DNA of 64,000 nt from a bacterium (GTDB lineage Bacteria; Patescibacteriota; Minisyncoccia; UBA6257; JAGOQP01), in assembly GCA_021814695.1 (NCBI GenBank), contig JAKAHY010000002.1:8920-72919 (forward strand), in the 5' to 3' direction. Numbering within the stretch: the stretch's first letter is position 1; the number at the start of each line of letters is the position of its first letter. The position numbers and the translations under genes are program-made. A model generated the notes under the pieces. That model did not search any database. It saw nothing but the letters and a program-made list of their open reading frames with translations, and had not been told where the DNA came from. Below, piece by piece: positions 1-48,307 of this stretch.

Positions 1-705
1 AAAATAATAACTATTGAAGATCCAATTGAATACCATCTGGAAGGGATAGAACAAACTCAAGTTGACGAAGAGGCGGGATATACGTTTGCCGGAGGTTTGC
101 GTTCGCTGATGAGACAGGACCCGGACGTAATACTCGTTGGTGAAATCAGAGACAGAGAAACTGCCGAGATATCTGTCCAAGCGGCTCTTACGGGACACTT
201 GGTCCTTTCAACTATTCACGCCAATGAAGCTTCCGGAGCCATTCCTCGGCTTTTGGATTTGGGAGTGAAAAATGTCAGTCTTGCTCCTGCGTTAAATCTT
301 TTGATTGCCCAACGTTTGGTGAGGCGTTTGTGCAAATATTGTAAAACGGAATCCGAAATATCCGATGAATTAAGAAAAAATATCGAAACTTTTGTAAATG
401 CAATGCCCGATAGAGTCGATAAAAAACATTATCTGGAGAACATGAAGACGTACAAAGTGGTCGGGTGTGAAAAATGCAACATGACCGGATATAAAGGCAG
501 GGTTGGAATTTATGAATTATTGGAGATAAGCAAAAAAATGCAGGACATGATAGTCCAAGGTTCGGGTCAGCTGGCGATAGAAGAGGAGATAAAAAATACC
601 GATTTTGTAAACGTGCAGCAGGATGGGGTATTGAAATTTATTTCGGGAATAACCACTCTTGAAGAAGTTGAAGGGGTGGCGGGTAAAATAAACTGGAAGG
701 CATAA
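1..705 (+). CDS. Type II/IV secretion ATPase (GspE/PilB family), C-terminal part; gene starts upstream of window
   Basis: Frame-1 translation from nt 1 reads KIITIEDPIEYHLEG...RQDPDVILVGEIRDRETAE...LTGHLVLSTIHAN (GspE Asp/His boxes) plus a C-terminal tetracysteine CKYC...CEKC motif; no start codon in window. Confidence 0.85.
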   Translation, partial: KIITIEDPIEYHLEGIEQTQVDEEAGYTFAGGLRSLMRQDPDVILVGEIRDRETAEISVQAALTGHLVLSTIHANEASGAIPRLLDLGVKNVSLAPALNLLIAQRLVRRLCKYCKTESEISDELRKNIETFVNAMPDRVDKKHYLENMKTYKVVGCEKCNMTGYKGRVGIYELLEISKKMQDMIVQGSGQLAIEEEIKNTDFVNVQQDGVLKFISGITTLEEVEGVAGKINWKA

Positions 706-1289: not shown

Positions 1290-1751
1290 CTATTTTCCTT
1301 TCATTATTTGCATTATGAGGCCTCTTCCTCCCGGTCTTATTGTTGTTGTAACCTGATAATCTGCACTGATCATTTTTATAAAATCGTTGAATCTTTTTCT
1401 GGCCCAATCCTGATTGTATTTCTCCCTGCCCCTTAAGGCCATCATTATTTCAACTTTATTTCCTTTCTCAAGAAATTCTTCCGCCTGGAGTGCTCTGATT
1501 TTAAGATCGTTATCGGCAGCTCTTGGAGTTATTCTTACCTGTTTTAACTCTCCGGTTGGTTTGTGCGCACGCTTCTTCTCCTCTTTTCTTTGTTGATATC
1601 GGAATTTATCGTAGCTGATTATTTTTACTACCGGCGGTTTGATATTAGGTGCGATTTCAACCACATCCAGCCCTTTTTCTTCGGCTAGTGCAAGTGCCTC
1701 AGAGAGTTTCATAACGCCCAAATTAGCTCCTGCTTCGTCAACCACGCGCAC
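1290..1751 (-). CDS. infC: Translation initiation factor IF-3; the true start is probably a non-AUG codon (AUU/AUC) some 10-15 codons upstream (to about 1796)
   Basis: VRVVDEAGANLGVM..LALAEEKGLDVVEIAPN..PPVVKI is conserved IF-3 sequence. The upstream in-frame extension ...YVRINQRITASEV continues the IF-3 N-domain, and the codon at 1749-1751 is GTG. Confidence 0.9.
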   Translation of the reverse strand: MRVVDEAGANLGVMKLSEALALAEEKGLDVVEIAPNIKPPVVKIISYDKFRYQQRKEEKKRAHKPTGELKQVRITPRAADNDLKIRALQAEEFLEKGNKVEIMMALRGREKYNQDWARKRFNDFIKMISADYQVTTTIRPGGRGLIMQIMKGK

Positions 1752-1873
1752 TTCTGATGCCGTAATTCTTTGGTTGATTCTGACGTAGTTATCGATGGTG
1801 AGTGGCGTTACTGTTTTTAACGTCCATTAGATTAACACACAAATAAGCCGTTTGCAATACTTTTGCGGCTGAT

Positions 1874-1902
1874 AAAAAAAGCCCACCGGTGTTCTGGTGG
1901 GG
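1874..1902 (-). terminator. Rho-independent terminator of the GC-rich small gene
   Basis: Minus strand CCCACCagaacaccGGTGGGcttttttt. Confidence 0.6.
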
Positions 1903-1930
1903 CGCCTCGTTGGAGGCGGTTGGGAAGCGC

Positions 1931-2152
1931 TTAGCCGCGCTTCGCTTTGGAGGATGCCGAGACCTTGTGAGTCCCGGCGACGGCCACGCCGCGGTTGGCG
2001 GTGGCCAGGTCGGCCTGAGTCCTCCGCTTGGCCGCCCGGTTCGCGTGCTTGACGCTGTGACGGTCCTTGGGCGCGGTCTTGCCGCAGCGCCCGTTGGGGT
2101 GGCGGTTGCCGCCACCCGAAACCCGACAGTGACACAGTTCGCACACGGCCAT
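1931..2152 (-). CDS. Small basic Cys-containing protein (73 aa) encoded by a 65% GC, GC3-rich ORF; resembles ribosomal protein bL28 (GK...SV.H..R..KRR ... V.V.GT.K....SSKAK)
   Basis: Strong SD GGGAGGTG lies 6 nt upstream of the ATG, with its own promoter and terminator. The sequence MAVCELCHC..CGKTAPKDRHSVKHANRAAKRR..GVAVAGTHKVSASSKAKRG fits bL28 loosely. Two other-frame ORFs over the same DNA are GC-rich artefacts. Confidence 0.5.
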   Translation of the reverse strand: MAVCELCHCRVSGGGNRHPNGRCGKTAPKDRHSVKHANRAAKRRTQADLATANRGVAVAGTHKVSASSKAKRG

Positions 2153-2190
2153 ATTACACCTCCCTTGTCGTTTGATTTACCGCTTTTTAT

Positions 2191-2219
2191 AACATAGCAT
2201 AACTAACTACATTTGTCAA
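2191..2219 (-). promoter_or_regulatory. Sigma70-like promoter (TTGACA-17-TATGTT) for the GC-rich small gene
   Basis: Minus strand reads TTGACAaatgtagttagttatgcTATGTT, about 40 nt upstream of the SD/ATG. Confidence 0.45.
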
Positions 2220-2246
2220 TATTTATGGGAAAACAAAATCACCCGC

Positions 2247-2275
2247 AAGGGGTGATCTTATTTTTGTGGAGATGG
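2247..2275. terminator. Terminator hairpin downstream of the GIY-YIG gene
   Basis: ATCACCCgcaaGGGGTGAT flanked by T-runs on both strands. Confidence 0.5.
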
Positions 2276-2290
2276 GAGAGTTGGCTCCGA

Positions 2291-2530
2291 CTAAACTAAA
2301 TGCTTGTTTCTAAAAGCTATTCCCGAACCACTTTTCAGATATTTTTCAAAGTTGATCGCCTGTTCCTTGTTATGAAAAGTGCAGTGCCAAGCAATAATAA
2401 ATGGCGCTCTACTTGAGCTATATTTGGAACCATAACTATTATGTTCCAATAGTCTTTTCTTAATATCAATTGTGATGCCCGTATAGAAACTCCCATCTTT
2501 TAAACTGCGAAGAATATAGACAAAATACAT
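2291..2530 (-). CDS. GIY-YIG nuclease family protein (small, stand-alone)
   Basis: MYFVYILRSLKDGSFYTGITIDIKKRLLEHN matches the GIY-YIG motif arrangement; 79 aa. Confidence 0.8.
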   Translation of the reverse strand: MYFVYILRSLKDGSFYTGITIDIKKRLLEHNSYGSKYSSSRAPFIIAWHCTFHNKEQAINFEKYLKSGSGIAFRNKHLV

Positions 2531-2622: not shown

Positions 2623-2672
2623 AATGCTTCTTGTGCAAGGAGTGCTTGCACTACGAAGCCTTGGCGAAGTAG

Positions 2673-2988
2673 TGGAGATGGCGAGAGTTGAACTCGCGTC
2701 CAGAAAGAGGGATTGAAAGCGTCTACGGGCGTATCTTCTTTTGGAAGCTGATTTGCTTTCTGATTGTCCCTACGGATACGAAAGCGCTTTCCGTGGGTAA
2801 GCCTCAAATATAACACCGGCGATTTCCCCATGAGACATCGGGAGCCGATGGCTTACGCACGAACTAAAAAGTTCTTAAGCGTATGCAAGTGCTACATTTC
2901 TGTTAGCAGATTTGTTTTGGCGGATTTACAAGTCGCCGCTTGACCCGCAACTTTCAAAGAACTCTATCTGTCAAAGCCCAGCATCCCC
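2673..2988 (-). ncRNA. ssrA: tmRNA (SsrA), about 316 nt, encoding the tag ANRNVALAYA*
   Basis: 5' GGGGAUG pairs with 3' CAUCUCC-A and includes the G3·U Ala identity pair. T-arm is GCGAG-TTCAACT-CTCGC. 5' domain reads CUGGGCUUUGACAG. Tag ORF is GCU AAC AGA AAU GUA GCA CUU GCA UAC GCU UAA, followed by the hairpin GAACUuuuuaGUUC. It lies immediately 3' of smpB. Confidence 0.85.
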
Positions 2989-28133: not shown

Positions 28134-28683
28134 ATTTTTCCAGTTCCTTTTTCAGTTGCCGGAGCGCCCTGAATTGCAGCACGCGTACGGCGCCATGGTT
28201 TTTTCCGGTGATTTTAGCTATTTCTTTGGGAGATAGTCCTTCTACGAACCTCATAAGTATAATTTCCTGATAATCCGATGGTAGTCGCTTGATTGTTTTG
28301 TAAACCGTTTCCACCTCTAATTTATTGGAGAGCATTTCCTCGCTGCTTTTTGTGGTCAGTGACAAAACTTCATCGGGGATATCATCAATGTTGGTTATTT
28401 GTTTTTTTGTCCTATAAAAATCAATGACCTTATTTCTGGCAATTTTATATAACCAACTTGCCATAGGAAGGCCCTGATCCTGAAACATCTCAATGTTCTG
28501 CCAAGCACTTAAAAATACCTGATGGGTGAGGTCCTCAGCTTCCTCACGCTGGCTTACTTTTAGGAATATAAACCGAAATAGTTTCGGTTGATATTTGTCG
28601 TAAAGCAAGCCAAAAGCCGAGGCCTCACCCCGGATAGCGCGCTCTAGTAAGTCTCTTTCGTTGTCTATGCGCTCATCTTTCAT
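28123..28683 (-). CDS. ECF (sigma-70 family, group 4) RNA polymerase sigma factor
   Basis: Region 2 LTHQVFLSAWQN..F.....WLYKIARNKVIDFYR and region 4 HTH EIAKITGKNHGAVRV. Confidence 0.9.
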   Translation of the reverse strand: MKDERIDNERDLLERAIRGEASAFGLLYDKYQPKLFRFIFLKVSQREEAEDLTHQVFLSAWQNIEMFQDQGLPMASWLYKIARNKVIDFYRTKKQITNIDDIPDEVLSLTTKSSEEMLSNKLEVETVYKTIKRLPSDYQEIILMRFVEGLSPKEIAKITGKNHGAVRVLQFRALRQLKKELEKYEA

Positions 28684-28846
28684 AATAAACGAATAAGAAT
28701 GCCTTGTGTTTCAGTTGTTTTAGCAGGCATTCTCGTAGTTTTAAGCCCCCTTTTCTGGGGGCATACCACATTATGGCATATATCCTTGAGAAAGGGAAGG
28801 AATATTCAAAGGATGGCTACTTTAGTAACCGAACGGAATAGTAGTA

Positions 28847-28875
28847 TTGACTAATATGTTATATTATGTTAATAT
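28847..28875 (+). promoter_or_regulatory. Sigma70-like promoter TTGACT-17-TAATAT for the GC-rich small membrane-protein gene
   Basis: TTGACTaatatgttatattatgtTAATAT; SD AAAGGAG lies 7 nt before the ATG at 28898. Confidence 0.45.
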
Positions 28876-28897
28876 TATGGCAGAAAGGAGATTGCCC

Positions 28898-29116
28898 ATG
28901 AACAGCACGAATAAGCGGAGGGGTTGGATCGGCGTGATCGGGGCGGCGGGGTTGGCGGTTCTGTTATACGCCAACACTCTCAATGTTGTGGCTCATATGG
29001 CCAGCGGCCGCGGCTCGTTGGGTTTGGGCATCCCGCTCGCCCTCATATTCGGTGGCGGGACCTACTTCTTCGGGGACATCGCGCTCAAGAAGGCGAGGTA
29101 TCTCGCCAGCCACTAG
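28898..29116 (+). CDS. Small 2-TM membrane peptide (72 aa) encoded by about 63% GC, GC3-rich DNA (the ORF track's longer ORF starts inside the promoter)
   Basis: MNSTNKRRGWIGVIGAAGLAVLLYANTL...GLGIPLALIFGGGTYFFGDIALKKARYLASH; own promoter, SD and terminator. Confidence 0.5.
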   Translation: MNSTNKRRGWIGVIGAAGLAVLLYANTLNVVAHMASGRGSLGLGIPLALIFGGGTYFFGDIALKKARYLASH

Positions 29117-29140
29117 CAGTTCTTTGTTTCGTTCGACGTG

Positions 29141-29170
29141 AACGGTTCTACGGAGCCGTTCCTTTTTTTA
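29141..29170 (+). terminator. Rho-independent terminator
   Basis: AACGGttctacggagCCGTTccttttttta. Confidence 0.65.
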
Positions 29171-29233
29171 TCCCACACCTTTTATTTGCAAATAAAAGAT
29201 GCGGGATTTTATAAACCCTGGTAATATGAGGCA

Positions 29234-30157
29234 ATGCTTTTTTCGCGAATAACAAAAAAAGATATTTTGATATTTATCGTCGTTTTCCTGGTTTTGGGCG
29301 CTATTTTTGTTTTACATAAGCCCACATCGTTTATCGGAGATAATTATGCCGTTGTGGAAAATTCGAGCATCCCCAAACTTCAGGTGGCTACCTCATTTCC
29401 ATTGGCGGCTGATTGGATAAATTCCGTCGGCAAAGACCGGGTTCAGGTACAGGTTTTTGCATCACCCACGGATGATGGGCTGATTCAGTGGCTAAAAAAG
29501 CCCTCTTCGGATGCTCCACAGGAGACCAAAGTTTTTGTTTCTATGGGAAATAATTTTGACCAATGGGCCCAAGAACTGTCCGGGGGAGATCCCAAAATAA
29601 AAATTGATGTTATGATTTTGAGTAATTTTGCGTCTCCGGTTAAAACATATCCTACTTTATCGGGTTCTTCTAAGAACGCTGAAAATTCCTCACCTTACTA
29701 TTGGCTTTCACTTGAGAATGTCCGGGAGTCAGTTCAGGGCATTGCCCGGGAATTTGGAAAAGTTGATGCTGCCGATAGGGAATATTTTATAAACAATGCA
29801 TATGAATATTCTGTCAGACTCGATTCGCTGCTGCACGAAACTGTGGATGTTTTGGGAAGTATCAGAAATACCGCAGTGGCACTTGATGGCGCCAGATGGG
29901 CTCCTTTTGTAGACAGTTTGCAGTTGCGGGTTGTCGGGTTGTTTGATTCAAACTCCACAGAAGACATCAAGGCTATTCTTAAAAAAAATAAAATCACCAC
30001 AGTTGTGACCGATAGCGATTCGAACGGCCGATTTTTGGAACCGGCATTATCCGGGACGACCGTATCGGTTGCTGTCATAGATCCCTGGGGACTTAATAGC
30101 AATAACTACGTGGATTTTATGCGCTCTAATATTTCGGAACTGATGAAAGCGCTTTAG
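29234..30157 (+). CDS. ZnuA/TroA-family substrate-binding protein homolog with degenerate metal site
   Basis: Collinear with the ZnuA at 43054 (ATSFPLAADWINSVG ~ ATTIFPVFDIARNIVG; SPYYWLSLEN ~ DPHYWLALNN), but His/Asp ligands are replaced (DPH to SPY). Confidence 0.65.
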   Translation: MLFSRITKKDILIFIVVFLVLGAIFVLHKPTSFIGDNYAVVENSSIPKLQVATSFPLAADWINSVGKDRVQVQVFASPTDDGLIQWLKKPSSDAPQETKVFVSMGNNFDQWAQELSGGDPKIKIDVMILSNFASPVKTYPTLSGSSKNAENSSPYYWLSLENVRESVQGIAREFGKVDAADREYFINNAYEYSVRLDSLLHETVDVLGSIRNTAVALDGARWAPFVDSLQLRVVGLFDSNSTEDIKAILKKNKITTVVTDSDSNGRFLEPALSGTTVSVAVIDPWGLNSNNYVDFMRSNISELMKAL

Positions 30158-30227: not shown

Positions 30228-30299
30228 GCGGGTATCGTATAGCGGCTATTATACTTCCTTGCCAAGGAAGAGATACGGGTCCGACTCCCGTTACCCGCT
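30228..30299 (+). tRNA. tRNA-Gly (GCC)
   Basis: Acceptor GCGGGTA/TACCCGC; anticodon arm CTTCC-TTGCCAA-GGAAG; T-arm ACGGG-TCCGACT-CCCGT. Confidence 0.9.
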
Positions 30300-30302
30300 C
30301 AA

Positions 30303-30337
30303 AAACAAAAATTACCCAAACGGGTAATTTTTGTTTT
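30303..30337. terminator. Perfect 11-bp hairpin terminator after tRNA-Gly
   Basis: AAAAATTACCCaaaCGGGTAATTTTTgtttt. Confidence 0.6.
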
Positions 30338-30466
30338 GGGTGTTGACGGGGTAGGATGCGGGGTGGTCGAGGGGCTGCAAGCCCCTCGTGTTGGAAATTA
30401 TTCAAAACCGAGGGTTTTGAAGGAGCGAATATAATGAGCGACGTCCGATTTCCCGTTACCCGCTCA
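30336..30466 (+). repeat. tRNA-trailer structured element, copy E1, ending in a duplicate of the tRNA-Gly(GCC) 3' end
   Basis: GGGGTGGTCGAGGGGctgcaaGCCCCTCGTGTTGGAAATTA-TTCAAAACCgagGGTTTTGAAGGAG-CGAATATAATGAGCGACGTCCGATTTCCC followed by GTTACCCGCTCA (= tRNA 3' end). Confidence 0.6.
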
Positions 30467-30502
30467 AAAACAAAAAGCACCACAAGGGTGTTTTTTGTTT
30501 TC

Positions 30503-30650
30503 TGTCCGCCCGGAAGGGAGTCTCACGTCGCTCCGACATTGCGTCGGAGCTCCCAAGACACCCTCGGTTTCTTGACGCTCCTCCGGAGCTTTTTCCTACA
30601 CGGGAGATTAAGCATCTCCCGACCCCTCTCTATTCAATTCCTTGTTGACG
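30503..30650 (-). repeat. tRNA-trailer structured element, copy E2 (minus strand), fused to a duplicate of the tRNA-Lys 3' end
   Basis: Minus strand GGAATTGAATAGAGAG-GGGTCGGGAGATgcttaATCTCCCGTGTAGGAAAAAG-CTCCggaGGAG-CGTCAAGAAACCGAGGGTGTCTTGGGAG-CTCCGACgcaatGTCGGAG-CGACGTGAGACTCCC-TTCCGGGCGGACA. Confidence 0.6.
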
Positions 30651-30689
30651 AACAAAACAAAAAATATTCACAAAGGATATTTCTTATTT

Positions 30690-30826
30690 TGTCCGCCCGG
30701 AAGGGAATCTCACGTCGCTCCGACCTTGCGTCGGAGCTCCTTAAAACCATTCGGTTTTAATATTTCCTCCACGGAAAACCTTCGGTTTCCCGACCCCATC
30801 CGATTTGATTCCTTTACTGACGAATA
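30690..30826 (-). repeat. tRNA-trailer structured element, copy E3 (minus strand), fused to a second duplicate of the tRNA-Lys 3' end
   Basis: Minus strand GGAATCAAATCGGAT-GGGGTCGGGAAACCgaagGTTTTCCGTGGAGGAAATA-TTAAAACCgaatGGTTTTAA-GGAG-CTCCGACgcaagGTCGGAG-CGACGTGAGATTCCC-TTCCGGGCGGACA. Confidence 0.6.
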
Positions 30827-30865
30827 TAAAACAAAAAGCACCACAAGGGTGTTTTTTGTTTTCTG

Positions 30866-30938
30866 TCCGCCCGGAAGGGATCGAACCTTCGACCGTCTCC
30901 TTAAGAGGGAGCTGCTCTACCAGCTGAGCTACGGGCGG
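30866..30938 (-). tRNA. tRNA-Lys (CTT)
   Basis: Minus strand CCGCCCG-TA-GCTCAGCTGGTAGAGC-A-GCTCC-CTCTTAA-GGAGA-CGGTC-GAAGG-TTCGATC-CCTTC-CGGGCGG-A. Confidence 0.9.
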
Positions 30939-43053: not shown

Positions 43054-43938
43054 ATGAGAAAAACATTTTATATTATCTTAATCATACTGCCGGTTGTATT
43101 CGCAGTAGCCATTTATTTATTTTCAAGAAGTTCCACTTCAAAAGAAAGCGGATTAAAAATAGCGACGACTATTTTCCCTGTTTTTGACATCGCAAGAAAT
43201 ATTGTTGGCGATAAAATTCAGGTTATTCAGGTAGTTCCTCCGGGAGCCAGTCCGCATACTTTTGAGGTAACTCCCCAAACGGCATTGGAACTGCAAGGCG
43301 TCAAGGCGATATTTAAAATAGGAAATGGGCTTGATGACTGGATTGACGGCGTTGCCCAAAGCGGCGCCCCAAACGCTCGGATTTTTACGCTCTCGCAAGG
43401 AATAGATTTGAGGAAATTTTCAGACGGCAGTGTTGATCCTCACTACTGGCTGGCGTTAAATAATGCGCAAATAATCGCTCAAAATATTTTTCAGGATGTT
43501 TTGGAAATTGATCCTGCCAATAAAGATTATTATCAATCTAATCTGGATGCTTACTTGAAAAAACTTGATACTGCCGACAAAAAGATATCGGCAACTTTGG
43601 CCGACGTTTCTCAAAAAAACATCGCCACTTTCCATGATGCTTGGTATTATTTTGCCCAAAGATATGGACTTAACGTTATCACCGCTTTTGAGCCGTTTCC
43701 CGGAAAAGAACCCACCCCCCAATATCTTTCGCAATTTATAAACGATATAAAAAAATATAATTTGAAAGTTGTTTTTATAGAACCTCAATTTTCGTCTCAA
43801 AGTTTGGAACAAATCGCTAAAGACCAGGGAGTTAATTTGGTCTTAATCAATCCGGCTGATGGCGGAGCTTCGGGAAATGACGATTTGATAACGCTGCTTG
43901 AAAATGATGCTCAAATAATGGCTTCCGTGCTAAAATAG
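43054..43938 (+). CDS. znuA: Zinc/manganese ABC transporter substrate-binding protein
   Basis: TroA-like: TTIFPVFDIARNIVGDKI..V..PGASPHTFE, DPHYWL, FHDAWYYF. Confidence 0.85.
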   Translation: MRKTFYIILIILPVVFAVAIYLFSRSSTSKESGLKIATTIFPVFDIARNIVGDKIQVIQVVPPGASPHTFEVTPQTALELQGVKAIFKIGNGLDDWIDGVAQSGAPNARIFTLSQGIDLRKFSDGSVDPHYWLALNNAQIIAQNIFQDVLEIDPANKDYYQSNLDAYLKKLDTADKKISATLADVSQKNIATFHDAWYYFAQRYGLNVITAFEPFPGKEPTPQYLSQFINDIKKYNLKVVFIEPQFSSQSLEQIAKDQGVNLVLINPADGGASGNDDLITLLENDAQIMASVLK

Positions 43939-43942
43939 AAAA

Positions 43943-44653
43943 ATGGATCCGCTACTGGATGTTAAAAATTTATCGGTAAAATTTGGTGATGTTTCCGTCT
44001 TGGAAAACGTCAATTTTTCTTTGAACAAGGGAGATATCTTGACGATTATCGGTCCTAACGGAGCCGGCAAAACGGTATTGGTAAAATCCATACTCGGATT
44101 AATTAGTCACGAGGGAATAGTTGAATTTAACGGCCGACCGGTTTTGTCCCAACTTTCAAAAATAGGTTATGTTCCTCAGCGGCTTGATTTTGACCGGACA
44201 TTTCCGATTACCGCCAAAGAATTACTGGATTTGGTTTCAAAAAAAACAACTTCCGAAGAAACAAAAACCGTTTGTCAGCATCTTGAAATAGAAAATATTC
44301 TTTCAAAAAAGATTGGAACGCTTTCAGGTGGTCAAATGCAAAGAGTTTTAATCGCTCGGGCGGTTATGGGTGGTCCCGAACTTTTGATTATGGATGAGCC
44401 GACGGCGGGAGTGGATATCGGCGGCGTTAAAAATTTTTACGACATAGTCGGTCATTTAAACAAAGAACACGGGATGACGATTATATTAATATCCCATGAA
44501 ATAAATATGGTCTATTCGCTGGCAAGCAAGGTTTTGTGTTTGAATAAACAAATGCTTTGCGTTGGAACTCCCAAGCAGGCGATTACCAGAAAAATTTTGG
44601 ATAAGCTTTATGGAGGAAGTGTCGGCCCCAGGGAACATAATCACTTAAATTAG
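43943..44653 (+). CDS. znuC: Metal ABC transporter ATP-binding protein
   Basis: Walker A GPNGAGKT; signature LSGGQMQRV; Walker B LLIMDEP. Confidence 0.9.
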   Translation: MDPLLDVKNLSVKFGDVSVLENVNFSLNKGDILTIIGPNGAGKTVLVKSILGLISHEGIVEFNGRPVLSQLSKIGYVPQRLDFDRTFPITAKELLDLVSKKTTSEETKTVCQHLEIENILSKKIGTLSGGQMQRVLIARAVMGGPELLIMDEPTAGVDIGGVKNFYDIVGHLNKEHGMTIILISHEINMVYSLASKVLCLNKQMLCVGTPKQAITRKILDKLYGGSVGPREHNHLN

Positions 44654-44677
44654 CAAGCAATAATCGATATTCGATAA

Positions 44678-45487
44678 ATGGAAAACATAATCAATCTAAT
44701 TTCATATCCGTTTGTTTTGAGGGCAATATTTGCCGGAATTGTTACTGCGGCACTGCTGGCTTTCTTAGGGGTTTTTGTGGTGTTAAGAAAAATGTCTTTT
44801 TACAGCGACGGTATCGCGCATGCGTCTTTGGCCGGAGTGGCGGCGGGAATTTTGCTTTCCAGCCAGCCGCTTTTGTGGGCAATGATTGTTGGAATTATTT
44901 TTGCGATTTTGGTTTTTTGGCTGGAAAAAAGAACTTCGGTTTCGGTTGATGCGATTATCGGAGTTTTGTTTACCGCTAGTTTGGCCTTGGGTGTGGTTTT
45001 GATGAATTTCAAATCGGGATATCAGCCAGATTTAATCAGTTTTCTTTTTGGAAATATTCTGACGATTCAATATTCGGATATCTGGCTTATTTTAATTATC
45101 GCTTTAATTACCGGAATTTTTATGACAATTAATTACAAAAAATATTTGCTTTTATCGTTAAATAAGGACTTGGCTTATCTTTCGGGAATAAATCTTTCTT
45201 TATATCAATTGTTGTTTTATATCGCCTTATCGGTTTCGGTTATTTTGGGAATAAAAATTGTAGGAGTGGTTTTGGTTAGTGCTTTAGTGATTATTCCCGT
45301 TTCTATCGCGAAACTTTTTTCGGTCTCAGCAAAGTCCTTGGTAGTTTGGAGCATTGTCTTATCGGAAATAATTATGCTTTTAGGCGTAATGCTGTCTTTA
45401 ATATTTAATTTGCCTACCGGAGCGACAATCGTTCTTGTTGGAGCAGTTATATTTTTTGGAGGAGTTTTAATTTTAAAAAAATTATAA
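44678..45487 (+). CDS. znuB: Metal ABC transporter permease
   Basis: ABC-3 family, 8 TM. Confidence 0.9.
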   Translation: MENIINLISYPFVLRAIFAGIVTAALLAFLGVFVVLRKMSFYSDGIAHASLAGVAAGILLSSQPLLWAMIVGIIFAILVFWLEKRTSVSVDAIIGVLFTASLALGVVLMNFKSGYQPDLISFLFGNILTIQYSDIWLILIIALITGIFMTINYKKYLLLSLNKDLAYLSGINLSLYQLLFYIALSVSVILGIKIVGVVLVSALVIIPVSIAKLFSVSAKSLVVWSIVLSEIIMLLGVMLSLIFNLPTGATIVLVGAVIFFGGVLILKKL

Positions 45488-47125: not shown

Positions 47126-47791
47126 TTGATTCAAATACGGCTGCGGAAAAGGACGGACATACACATGTCCGAAGAAGCTATCCGCATCAGCAACACCGCA
47201 GGGATTTTTCTGGTTATTCTTCCATCTTCAGGCGAGACGGAAGTGAAGACGGTATTGGTATTGGGAAAGTCTGAATTGGTAGAGCAGAGCAACGGCACTG
47301 TTTTTTCCAAGCCGCGCATGTGGGGATTGCCCAAGGGAAGGATGAAGTCCGATACGGATGAAGACGTTGTCACAACCGCCCTCCGAGAGTTTCAGGAGGA
47401 AACCGGAATCACCGAGATTTCCAAGGGTATGATCAATTGGGAGTTGTCCGTAACGGAGAAGGAATGTTCACTCCGTCCGGGCTCAGACGAACATCACAAG
47501 ACGTTTTTCCTGGTGGTTATGAAGAAAACGCCCAAGATCGGAATTCCTGTCGATCCCAAGATTGAGAAAGCCCAGATTTTTTCCATCAGCGAACTTCCCA
47601 TCACGGGCGGAACAAAGTTGGCCAAAAGTCATGCTCGGGCCATGAGCGCACTTCTGGAAAAGTGCCGGCCACAGCTTTTGGCAGAAGGCGTCCATCCCAT
47701 GGTTTTGGCTATGTGCGAGGTAGGCCTGTCCCACAAGCCGGGAGAAAATAAACCCGATGACGAAAAGAACAATTTCCGCAATCAGCGGTAA
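47126..47791 (+). CDS. NUDIX hydrolase
   Basis: Nudix box GLPKGRMKSDTDEDVVTTALREFQEETGI; about 52% GC; the start may be the internal Met at 47165. Confidence 0.8.
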   Translation: MIQIRLRKRTDIHMSEEAIRISNTAGIFLVILPSSGETEVKTVLVLGKSELVEQSNGTVFSKPRMWGLPKGRMKSDTDEDVVTTALREFQEETGITEISKGMINWELSVTEKECSLRPGSDEHHKTFFLVVMKKTPKIGIPVDPKIEKAQIFSISELPITGGTKLAKSHARAMSALLEKCRPQLLAEGVHPMVLAMCEVGLSHKPGENKPDDEKNNFRNQR

Positions 47792-47792
47792 C

Positions 47793-47819
47793 TCCGAGCA
47801 TGTCTCGGAGATTTTTTTA
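47793..47819 (+). terminator. Rho-independent terminator
   Basis: CTCCGAGcatgtCTCGGAGattttttt. Confidence 0.7.
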
Positions 47820-47832
47820 ATCAAAAAATAAT

Positions 47833-47960
47833 ATTTGAAAATATCCCGACAAGTGAGGGGATTTTGTATAGTCCTTCTTCGCATAAAGCTTCGAAGGACA
47901 CTTTTCGTCTGGCTTGCACTTCGTAGCTCGCCAGGGCGAAGAAGTGAGCGGGTAAGGGGA
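47833..47960. repeat. Direct repeat copy a (about 128 bp): tRNA-Gly(TCC) downstream flank plus the 16-nt tRNA 3' end
   Basis: Near-identical to 48061..48188 (offset 228 bp); ends in ..GTGAGCGGGTAAGGGGA, the reverse complement of the tRNA 3' end. Confidence 0.8.
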
Positions 47961-48061
47961 AGTCTTACGCTCACCCCCGACCCCCGCTTAAGAAACCTTC
48001 GGGTTTCTTACGTCCCTATTTTCCAACACGGGGGTTCGCATTCGACTCCCAAACTCACCCA
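47961..48061 (-). repeat. Divergent copy (E5) of the tRNA-trailer element between the two direct repeats
   Basis: Minus strand GGGAGTCGAATGCGAACCCCCGTGTTGGAAAATAGG-GACGTAAGAAACCcgaagGGTTTCTTAAG-CGGGGGTCGGGGGTGAGCGTAAGACTTCCCC followed by TTACCCGCTCA. Confidence 0.45.
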
Positions 48062-48188
48062 CAAAAAAATATCCCGACAAGTGAGGGGATTTTGTATAGT
48101 CCTTCTTCGCATAAAGCTTCGAAGGACACTTTTCGTCTGGCTTGCACTTCGTAGCTCGCCAGGGCGAAGAAGTGAGCGGGTAAGGGGA
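48061..48188. repeat. Direct repeat copy b (overlaps the 3' end of the intact tRNA-Gly(TCC))
   Basis: See copy a. Confidence 0.8.
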
Positions 48189-48245
48189 GTCGGACCCCTC
48201 TCATCAGCTTGGAAAGCTGAGGTAATACCGATATACGATACCCGC
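48175..48245 (-). tRNA. tRNA-Gly (TCC)
   Basis: Minus strand GCGGGTA-TC-GTAT..-TCAGC-TTTCCAA-GCTGA-TGAG-AGGGG-TCCGACT-CCCCT-TACCCGC-T. Confidence 0.85.
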
Positions 48246-48307
48246 TTAATGTGAATAAAGGTAACAAATTTTCTTGATTTTTTCAATAACTCAGGTAATC
48301 TGAGCGT

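Follow-up and report, generated by a model that had tools for sequence, protein, structure and literature searches.

A stretch of 64,000 nucleotides from bacterial contig JAKAHY010000002.1 (assembly GCA_021814695.1; hereafter the window) was analysed computationally around a GC-rich mini-gene of 72 codons, which lies between an extracytoplasmic function (ECF) sigma/anti-sigma operon and a gene for a ZnuA-like binding protein. As an orphan small membrane protein its product is ordinary, and as a gene it is one more orphan of an uncultured lineage, of modest importance. The main oddity is that evolution keeps the codons of the mini-gene far GC-richer than the genome, a bias that is explained neither by horizontal transfer, nor by expression-linked codon bias, nor by a specific RNA fold.

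Locus organisation and expression signals

In the window, and likewise at the related loci L008/L009 and L011 (L numbers denote loci on other contigs), genes for a 313-aa secreted protein, an anti-sigma-like protein and a 186-aa ECF sigma factor, all on the minus strand, are followed by the mini-gene and by the ZnuA-like gene on the plus strand (Table 1). Besides these, the wider neighbourhood holds RNase Y, HU and tRNA genes.

Transcription of the mini-gene would start near position 28882. The stem-loop of the putative terminator (29140-29161) has nine pairs, five of them G-C, and is directly followed by CTTTTTTTAT; the CGTTC of the 3' untranslated region (UTR) can be paired on paper with the GAACG in the 5' arm of the terminator, which would give an alternative structure. 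Compared with shuffled sequences, neither signal is statistically exceptional as a match alone (promoter-like sites: 4 observed against 3.7±1.9; terminator-like sites: 5 observed against 2.5±1.5), and their weight comes from conservation in relatives, not from frequency.

The promoter TTGACT-17-TAATAT with TG is kept in L001 and L008, while L012 has TTGACT-16-TATAAT (11/12 matches) and L011 a perfect TTGACA-16-TATAAT with TG (12/12), the promoter being closer to consensus in some relatives than in the window. A ribosome-binding site and a terminator (GAACGG...CCGTTC and a T-run) were found at all six loci that carry an allele of the gene; GAAAGGAGA is retained at four of the six, with AGAAGGAGA in L011 and GAAAGGGGA in L013. 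Changes in the terminator stem among relatives are wobble or compensatory, equivalent terminators are predicted in L011 and L012, and the terminator is the sole well-kept helix in the six-sequence consensus fold (columns 270-278 with 283-291). Among the window, L001 and L008/L009, identity is 87-94% over promoter and UTR against 65-78% over the open reading frame (ORF); over 3' UTR and terminator it is 79-88% among the window, L001, L008 and L009. Since promoter, ribosome-binding site and terminator are conserved, the mini-gene appears to be a real, independently expressed monocistronic unit, and its consensus-like signals suggest high expression. The 89- and 90-aa readings from upstream starts (89 aa from TTG 28847) were rejected as not credible, the start falling inside the -35 box.

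The promoter, the AAAGGAG, the ORF and the terminator had been named in an earlier note on this DNA, and all lie where they were placed there; the 72-aa peptide with two Gly/Ala-rich transmembrane (TM) segments and a basic N-terminus is likewise translated as quoted. The GC-rich island that it described is present too, with an ORF GC content of 0.607, for which the quoted "about 63%" is slightly high.

Table 1. Coordinates of the mini-gene, its expression signals, its predicted protein segments, and other genes of the window referred to in the text
Feature	Position	Strand	Details
-35 box TTGACT	28847-28852	+	putative sigma-70-type promoter, matches at 9/12 with TG extension
Promoter spacer, 17 nt	between -35 and -10	+	TGn at its end
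-10 box TAATAT	28870-28875	+
Shine-Dalgarno AAAGGAG	28884-28890	+	7 nt 5' of ATG 28898
Mini-gene coding sequence, 72 aa	28898-29116	+	stop TAG 29114-29116; product MNSTNKRRGWIGVIGAAGLAVLLYANTLNVVAHMASGRGSLGLGIPLALIFGGGTYFFGDIALKKARYLASH
Mini-gene 3' UTR	29117-29139	+	CAGTTCTTTGTTTCGTTCGACGT; conserved
Intrinsic terminator	29140-29170	+	GAACGGTTC-TACG-GAGCCGTTC, then CTTTTTTTAT
Predicted TM1, loop and TM2	residues ~10-35, 36-40 and ~41-63		72-aa mini protein
Single-pass anti-sigma-like gene, 181 aa	27588-28133	-
ZnuA-like binding protein gene	29234-30157	+
Second GC-rich mini-gene, 73 codons	ORF 1931-2152 (island 1840-2194)	-	TTGACA-17-TATGTT, GGGAGG, terminator

Protein-coding status

Compared with L001, the closest relative (78% nucleotide identity), the window allele differs at 16, 8 and 24 sites at codon positions 1, 2 and 3, respectively. 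The ratio of nonsynonymous to synonymous substitution rates (dN/dS) in this comparison is 0.25 when the proposed frame is used and 0.66-3.0 for the five alternatives, and over all 15 pairs from the six alleles it ranges from 0.13 to 0.62. Purifying selection is specific to the proposed frame. Overlapping ORFs of 96 aa (28924-29214, plus strand) and 49 aa (28964-29113, minus strand) were rejected on the values of the other frames; a 52-aa ORF is also present in another plus-strand frame of the island.

No RNA family was found at the mini-gene when the whole window was searched against Rfam at gathering threshold, and a search at E <= 10 over 28650-29300 gave chance-level matches only. The best of these was a 32-nt match to the L31-Firmicutes leader over the region of the -10 box and ribosome-binding site, which reached 22.7 bits against a cut-off of 33.3. 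RNAalifold applied to the six transcripts gave a weak fold (-29.4 kcal/mol, covariation term +0.45) in which many pairs are broken and the terminator alone is kept. Against dinucleotide shuffles, the fold of the single sequence has z = -1.85, and the native coding sequence folds no better than synonymous-codon permutations of it (z +0.24 to -1.5 over the six alleles). The gene is protein-coding, given the frame-specific dN/dS, the absence of an Rfam match and the absence of a conserved fold.

Family and distribution

Among 5.8 billion clusters, a word-indexed search returned the protein itself and one 76%-identical relative only, and exhaustive phmmer against 1.84 billion representatives added four further proteins of 70-72 aa (64%, 51%, 52% and 39% identity). 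Two ~1,200-aa NHL-type repeat proteins from the phmmer search (P0007 and P0008) were discarded as spurious matches of a Gly/Ala-rich repeat. A profile built from the six members finds the same six and nothing more, the family consisting of six sequence clusters. The identical window protein is encoded on 10 contigs from several samples and in the NCBI metagenome-assembled genome GCA_027423275.1, and is therefore not an assembly artefact.

Peptide pattern scans found no relatives in GTDB species genomes, JGI metagenome contigs or IMG/VR, nor did tblastn against GenBank phages and PLSDB plasmids. Pfam-A and NCBIfam gave no family at E <= 1 for the window protein and none at cut-off for any of the six alleles, PHROGs and PADLOC gave no significant match for the six alleles (best PHROG E 0.021, one allele), and a sequence-profile search of the PDB gave nothing at E <= 10. 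One allele, P0004, matches PF07332 (Phage_holin_3_6, 'putative actinobacterial Holin-X') with E 0.0031 and 18.0 bits, below the cut-off of 28.4; the alignment spans the two-TM core (profile positions 33-95 of 116), and the other five alleles have no match. The mini-gene is restricted to a narrow group of uncultured bacteria. Two of these results bear on whether the gene proposed in the earlier note is genuine: it is kept in relatives, as a six-member family, and no housekeeping small-membrane-protein family was matched above cut-off in the Pfam, NCBIfam and PDB searches.

All alleles adjoin the ECF sigma operon and/or the ZnuA-like gene (sigma in 5/6 contexts, ZnuA-like in 5/6). The mini-gene is single-copy and present wherever that part of the locus is readable in the close clade, and no mobility genes were found adjacent to it. 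The upstream leader and downstream start of L012 are the same as in the window; at L013 a pilin-like ORF ends 4 nt before the mini-gene, with a downstream region as in the others; and L001 keeps the sigma side and has a different downstream gene, on a short contig, possibly a rearranged or chimeric one. At loci where the sigma factor is 90-91% identical the mini protein is 39-76% identical. In L018, a more distant outgroup with 61% sigma identity, the ZnuA-like and sigma genes diverge directly from each other across a gap of ~140 nt that holds no mini-gene. Because L018 keeps sigma and ZnuA-like genes adjacent without it, the mini-gene is a lineage-specific addition to this intergenic region and not ancestral to either operon. 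A GTDB scan with the sigma factor gave only a 31%-identical Paludibacter sigma; judged from gene content alone, the lineage probably resembles the candidate phyla radiation (CPR).

Base composition

GC content at codon positions 1, 2 and 3 of the mini ORF is 0.52, 0.48 and 0.81. The 59 long ORFs of the window have a mean third-position GC content (GC3) of 0.413 (standard deviation 0.060, maximum 0.60), and the mini-gene lies 0.20 above the genome in GC and 0.40 above it in GC3. Scanned in segments of 120 nt, the 64 kb have a mean GC of 0.414 (standard deviation 0.065), and two runs only, 28883-29159 and 1840-2194, exceed 250 nt at GC >= 0.56. All six alleles share the bias, with an ORF GC of 0.59-0.61 and a GC3 of 0.71-0.86 on contigs of 0.41-0.47 GC. 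Synonymous divergence among them is near saturation (proportion of synonymous differences 0.44-0.71), and the flanking ZnuA-like, anti-sigma-like and 313-aa genes have synonymous divergences (dS) of 0.8-2.5 at ordinary GC3.

Pairwise comparison of four-fold degenerate sites in the mini-gene gave 119 identical sites, 73 G<->C, 74 strong<->weak and 5 A<->T differences, with a composition of G 91, C 97, T 38 and A 15; these fractions are near the expectation for a saturated, stationary GC-rich process. In the sigma gene of the same contigs, 3 G<->C differences stand against 73 strong<->weak ones. The GC3 of the mini-gene is held at equilibrium and is not a relic of transfer: a decaying relic would not give a stationary pattern, so some force keeps third positions at G or C.

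Genome codon usage favours TTT (83%), AAA (78%) and GGA (49%), while the mini-gene favours the rarest codons of the genome; in the window allele all Phe codons are TTC, all Lys codons are AAG, and GGA does not occur. The native mRNA folds at -89.8 kcal/mol against -60.5±5.4 kcal/mol when recoded with genome codon usage, and is thus ~30 kcal/mol stabler. Expression-linked codon bias was rejected as the cause of the high GC3 on the ordinary values of highly expressed genes in the window (L20 0.48, IF3 0.38, HU 0.36, enolase 0.36). A specific RNA structure was rejected as well, there being no conserved fold and no excess over synonymous permutations. Selection for global compaction or stability of the mRNA, selection for slow translation and GC-biased gene conversion are all candidate causes.

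Prokaryotic orphan genes have been found to match the GC content of their host closely, with phage-like and de novo candidates lower (PMC11293555), so the raised direction of the present anomaly is unusual. The mini-gene is like the orphans of that survey in its short length, its restriction to one lineage, its lack of homologues and the weak purifying selection on it, but unlike them its GC is above that of the genome and at equilibrium.

A sister mini-gene in the same window

The second GC-rich run holds another mini-gene (Table 1), with a GC of 0.69 and a GC3 of 0.85. Its family has three members (the others at L026 1237-1458 and L027 5281-5502) with 82% identity and GC3 0.76-0.86, on contigs of 42% GC, and dN/dS is 0.26-0.59 in the proposed frame against 0.84-1.72 in the two shifted plus-strand frames tested. 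The product is a basic, Cys-rich, soluble 73-aa protein (MAVCELCHC...), unrelated to the membrane hairpin described below. No Rfam match was found for this gene and no Pfam domain in the three members; the label 'bL28-like', given to the island at 1931 by the earlier note, is not upheld, Pfam Ribosomal_L28 giving no match at E <= 1. The comparison drawn there between the two islands does hold, as they are of the same compositional kind and share the layout of promoter, ribosome-binding site, ORF and terminator. Their kinship speaks further for a GC bias that belongs to short monocistronic genes of this lineage as a class. In both the window and L026 the sister mini-gene is upstream of infC, whereas in L027 it has an IS481-type transposase gene beside it.

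Recombination

L001 and L009 are 90-100% identical through the anti-sigma gene, the sigma gene and most of the leader and promoter (dS 0.26-0.35). Within the mini ORF their identity falls to 55-68%, and L001 is there 85-87% identical to the window allele. Informative sites group L001 with L009 in the flanks (140:28) and L001 with the window in the ORF (47:18; Fisher p = 1.6e-15). As dN/dS between the two allele types is low (0.17) and dS is saturated, the divergence is old and was imported by recombination, not generated on the spot by fast evolution. For L001, at least one replacement of the allele is thus firmly established; it was limited to the ORF, and there mainly to the first two-thirds. 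General hypervariability of the ORF was considered and dropped, the dS of the ZnuA-like, anti-sigma and 313-aa genes being similar to that of the mini-gene, with sigma as the slow outlier.

The encoded protein

Two hydropathy peaks are seen in all six alleles (15-residue Kyte-Doolittle means 1.6-2.7). Both termini carry a positive net charge (N-terminus +2 to +4, C-terminus +1 to +4) and the loop one of about 0, from which the positive-inside rule would predict an N-in/C-in hairpin. AlphaFold2 run on the six-sequence alignment modelled helices at residues 3-35 and 41-71 joined by a 5-residue turn (mean predicted local distance difference test score 83.5, predicted TM-score 0.61), and Foldseek against the PDB returned generic helical hairpins only (best E 2.0). 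Residues M1, W10, G12, V13, G15, G18, G39, F51, F58, G59 and K65 are invariant in all six alleles; the window allele also has G44 and G52-54. This set would comprise an interfacial Trp, a Gly face of TM1, a Gly of the turn, aromatic and Gly positions of TM2 and a membrane-proximal Lys. The acidic D60 in TM2 of the window allele is not conserved, being K, R, N, Y or V in other alleles.

Among known systems, class II holins and PF07332 share with the mini protein a length of ~70 aa, two TM segments, a predicted N-in/C-in arrangement, a short external turn, small-residue helices and a charged C-terminus. Unlike them, the mini-gene has no endolysin, phage context, PHROG match or dual-start motif, and it stands in a chromosomal housekeeping neighbourhood behind a constitutive-looking promoter. 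Type I toxins with a 3'-overlapping antisense RNA, such as Bacillus TxpA/RatA and BsrG/SR4, are similar in being small hydrophobic peptides from monocistronic genes with strong promoter and terminator, and weak opposite-strand promoter-like sites lie just past the mini-gene terminator; the mini protein differs in being longer, with two TM segments, and its gene in an unoccluded ribosome-binding site and the lack of an antisense terminator.

AcrZ, KdpF, MgrB, CydX and PspG are small membrane proteins that act by TM-TM docking. Like these, the mini protein is shorter than 100 aa, almost wholly transmembrane, lineage-restricted and fast-evolving, with packing faces and not a catalytic motif. Proteins of the AcrZ type are mostly single-pass and are co-transcribed or co-regulated with their partner, whereas the mini-gene is an apparently independent unit with a two-pass product, and no sequence similarity to them was found. 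ATP synthase subunit c and 'glycine-zipper' channels are also two-helix hairpins of ~70-80 aa with Gly/Ala on one face of TM1 (here G12, G15 and G18). The mini protein gave no match to Pfam ATP-synt_C and non-significant Foldseek matches to c subunits (E > 6), and it differs from subunit c in the unconserved D60 and in its predicted topology, which is opposite, the loop of subunit c being cytoplasmic. It is set apart from both SecG and subunit c by the lack of a profile match and by its very narrow distribution.

Interpretation and alternative explanations

The reading that we favour, with a probability of about one half, is that of an independent gene for an oligomerising small membrane protein, an add-on of its lineage with a maintained GC content. 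The near-consensus sigma-70-type promoter with its extended -10 element would give a transcript of ~290 nt with a leader of ~15 nt, a strong Shine-Dalgarno sequence and an intrinsic terminator. The 72-aa protein would insert in the cytoplasmic membrane as a tight two-helix hairpin, with both basic termini cytoplasmic and the 5-residue Gly-rich turn outside. Each helix would carry a small-residue face, and close helix packing would be the mode of action, either in a homo-oligomer or by docking onto the TM segment of a partner; the protein would be an abundant structural or modulatory small membrane protein rather than a toxin checked by an antitoxin. The gene would have arisen as an addition between the ECF sigma/anti-sigma operon and the ZnuA-like gene in one narrow, probably CPR-like lineage, where purifying selection on it is weak and its rate of evolution exceeds that of the sigma factor more than tenfold. 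Its alleles would be exchanged between lineages by homologous recombination via the conserved expression signals, and its GC-rich synonymous codons are kept by an active force, for which selection on the mRNA (compaction/stability or translation rate) is the likeliest candidate.

Several points weigh against this reading. The role is argued from architecture, the protein having no homology to characterised ones, and the high expression is read from the consensus signals alone. Use of the rarest codons is unexpected in an abundant protein, and the highly expressed genes of the window have ordinary GC3. Class II holins, too, are N-in/C-in hairpins whose C-terminus is charged, one allele reaches 18 bits against Holin-X, and three out of four scanned loci have a weak antisense promoter-like site 3' of the gene. 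ORF-confined replacement, moreover, is common at loci driven by conflict or balancing selection, and would fit a role in toxicity, immunity or exclusion better than a structural one.

A pore-forming toxin, whether of type I with a convergent 3'-overlapping antisense RNA (as Bacillus txpA/RatA and bsrG/SR4) or a holin-like protein that acts by itself and makes the membrane permeable on accumulation, is unlikely. It would agree with the small hydrophobic hairpin, its small-residue faces and charged termini, with the sub-threshold Holin-X match of P0004 across the two-TM core, and with the allele replacement, which would be apt for a locus in conflict; rare codons could keep a toxic product at a low level, and minus-strand promoter-like sites lie just past the terminator (window 29234-29206, L008 1278-1250, L011 3124-3096). 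These sites, however, are 9/12 matches only and of chance density (~1.5 expected per scanned region); those of the window and L008 coincide with the ribosome-binding site and start of the znuA-like gene, L012 has none downstream of the gene, and no minus-strand terminator was found within or upstream of the ORF. Type I toxins usually have fewer than 60 aa and one TM helix, which a 72-aa product with two such helices exceeds. The putative leader of ~15 nt leaves the ribosome-binding site free of any conserved structure (in the consensus fold it pairs solely with the terminator U-tract, a trivial A/G-U pairing with no covariation), the consensus promoter gives no sign of repression, and the gene is single-copy and found wherever the locus is readable in the close clade. 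As for a holin, the one allele out of six that reaches Holin-X stays below cut-off (18 bits against 28.4), and no endolysin or other part of a lysis cassette, no phage gene, no PHROG or PADLOC match and no phage or plasmid relative was found. Nothing specific thus points to the type I toxin or the holin-like peptide of which the earlier note was reminded, and its third suggestion, a regulator of the adjacent ZnuA-like protein, has adjacency as its sole support and L018 against it.

That suggestion belongs to a wider and rather improbable explanation, in which the mini protein is an accessory membrane subunit that modulates the single-pass anti-sigma-like protein, or anchors or regulates the orphan ZnuA-like protein. 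The frequent adjacency to both genes and the small-residue helix faces, suited to TM-TM docking, would be accounted for, and L016 has another small membrane ORF with a consensus promoter at the equivalent divergent position; this ORF, though, is non-homologous (hhalign probability 0.2%). Each linkage is broken once (by the upstream pilin-like gene of L013 and the different downstream gene of L001), L018 keeps sigma and ZnuA-like genes adjacent without the mini-gene, and the promoter and terminator of the mini-gene, the former of sigma-70 and not ECF type, predict no co-transcription with the neighbours. Where sigma has an identity of 90%, that of the mini protein is 39%, and anti-sigma (dN 0.07-0.20) and ZnuA-like (dN 0.10-0.21) show no matching acceleration and therefore no sign of co-evolution. 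CPR-type bacteria can live on GC-rich hosts, and a recent import from a GC-rich donor, passively carried with an un-ameliorated composition of no selective meaning, would agree with GC 0.61 against 0.41, GC3 0.81 against 0.41±0.06, the atypical codons and a lineage-restricted insertion between two conserved neighbours. It is nevertheless very improbable: GC3 is 0.71-0.86 in all six alleles despite near-saturated synonymous sites, the flanking genes are equally diverged at normal GC3, no donor family was found in 1.8 billion representative proteins, phages and plasmids, the promoter and terminator are native in style, and mobility genes are not adjacent. Least credible is a GC-rich structured RNA (a small RNA or a dual-function one) with an incidental or secondary ORF, although GC-rich islands in AT-rich genomes often are RNA genes, the unit from promoter to terminator is compact (~290 nt) and the fold has z = -1.85 against dinucleotide shuffles. 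The best Rfam match stays below its cut-off, the consensus fold with its covariation term of +0.45 and broken pairs shows no structure beyond composition, and substitutions are frame-periodic, with the purifying signal in one frame.

Beyond the favoured reading of a structural or modulatory membrane protein, a bolder and quite doubtful proposal may be made: both GC-rich mini-genes would exemplify an undescribed, gene-specific compositional equilibrium, the GC3 of short monocistronic genes in an AT-rich and probably CPR genome being locked at ~0.8 by mRNA selection or by hot-spot GC-biased conversion, and the 72-aa gene would at the same time be a polymorphic cassette whose deeply diverged alleles are swapped between co-occurring lineages through the promoter and terminator arms under balancing selection, possibly with a role in self/non-self recognition, phage exclusion or the interface with a host. 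Neither the stationary GC3 nor the ORF-confined replacement was part of the earlier note, which was right on the gene, its signals, its peptide and the kinship of the two islands.

Two unrelated genes of ~72 codons in one genome, both using its rarest GC-ending codons, form an evolutionary signature worth following up. If selection on mRNA stability or translation rate is the cause, such short, monocistronic and recodable genes would provide a clean natural test of mRNA-level selection in bacteria; if recombination drives the bias, the GC-rich mini-genes would point to recombination hot spots on a very local scale. The swap of alleles within the ORF also makes the locus a candidate for a polymorphic determinant of the membrane, in organisms about whose cell surface almost nothing is known.

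Neighbouring genes and intergenic elements

At L016 (3330-3680, minus strand, locus coordinates), and also at L017, where sigma is 69% identical, a 116-aa multi-TM ORF is divergent from the sigma operon; it has a promoter TTGACA-16-TATAAT, a terminator and a moderately raised GC3 (0.49; neighbouring genes 0.27-0.37). This ORF may fill the same slot as an analogue of the mini-gene, and was rejected as a homologue of the mini protein on the hhalign probability given above. On the 2.4-kb contig of L001, a 275-aa ORF (1534-2361, minus strand) takes the place of the ZnuA-like gene, its 3' end overlapping the mini-gene stop and crossing the terminator; the arrangement may be a rearrangement or an assembly chimera.

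The ZnuA-like neighbour matches Pfam ZnuA with 84 bits, lies far under every NCBIfam equivalog cut-off and has no adjacent ATP-binding cassette (ABC) partners. A three-gene cluster at 43054-45487 (294, 236 and 269 aa) has translations that look like a binding protein, an ATPase and a permease.

In the gap from the mini-gene terminator to the start of the ZnuA-like gene, a near-perfect palindrome of 19+19 nt (ATCCCACACCTTTTATTTG and CAAATAAAAGATGCGGGAT, 29170-29207) is unique in the window. It is also present in L008, L013 and L011 (there with an insert of ~130 nt in the loop), with TTTTAT on both sides, and is absent from L009 and L012, though L008 and L009 share an identical mini ORF. It may be an indel-polymorphic hairpin or an insertion resembling a miniature inverted-repeat transposable element, or may be an operator overlapping a possible znuA-like promoter (TTGCAA-17-TTATAA).

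The leader of the ECF sigma operon (28700-28761), probably functional on the minus strand, has two hairpins and seems to be structured. Its hairpin GCCCCC-TTTTCT-GGGGGC (28744-28761) is near-invariant in all relatives, and a second hairpin, AGAATGCCT...AGGCATTCT (~28696-28735), has changes in both arms among relatives.

Other RNA and GC-rich features of the window

A segment of ~1.1 kb with raised GC (0.54-0.56 in places) at 47126-48254 adjoins a tRNA-Gly gene (48174-48245); it has no Rfam match at gathering threshold and holds only unconvincing TTG-start ORFs (GC3 0.60 and 0.45). For the tmRNA at 2672-2988 (minus strand), ARAGORN gives the tag peptide EAYPRKALSYP. Tags of tmRNA commonly end in ...ALAA, and the present one, which is unusual, may be lineage-specific or the result of a mis-called resume codon. 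Rfam and ARAGORN applied to 30286-30880 returned only the flanking genes for tRNA-Gly (30228-30300) and tRNA-Lys (30865-30938, minus strand), between which lie three tandem units of ~165-188 nt, each with a terminator-like hairpin (AAAACAAAAAGCACC...GGTGTTTTTTGTTTT) and a GC-rich segment of ~80 nt; these units may be repeated small RNA genes or tRNA-derived remnants.

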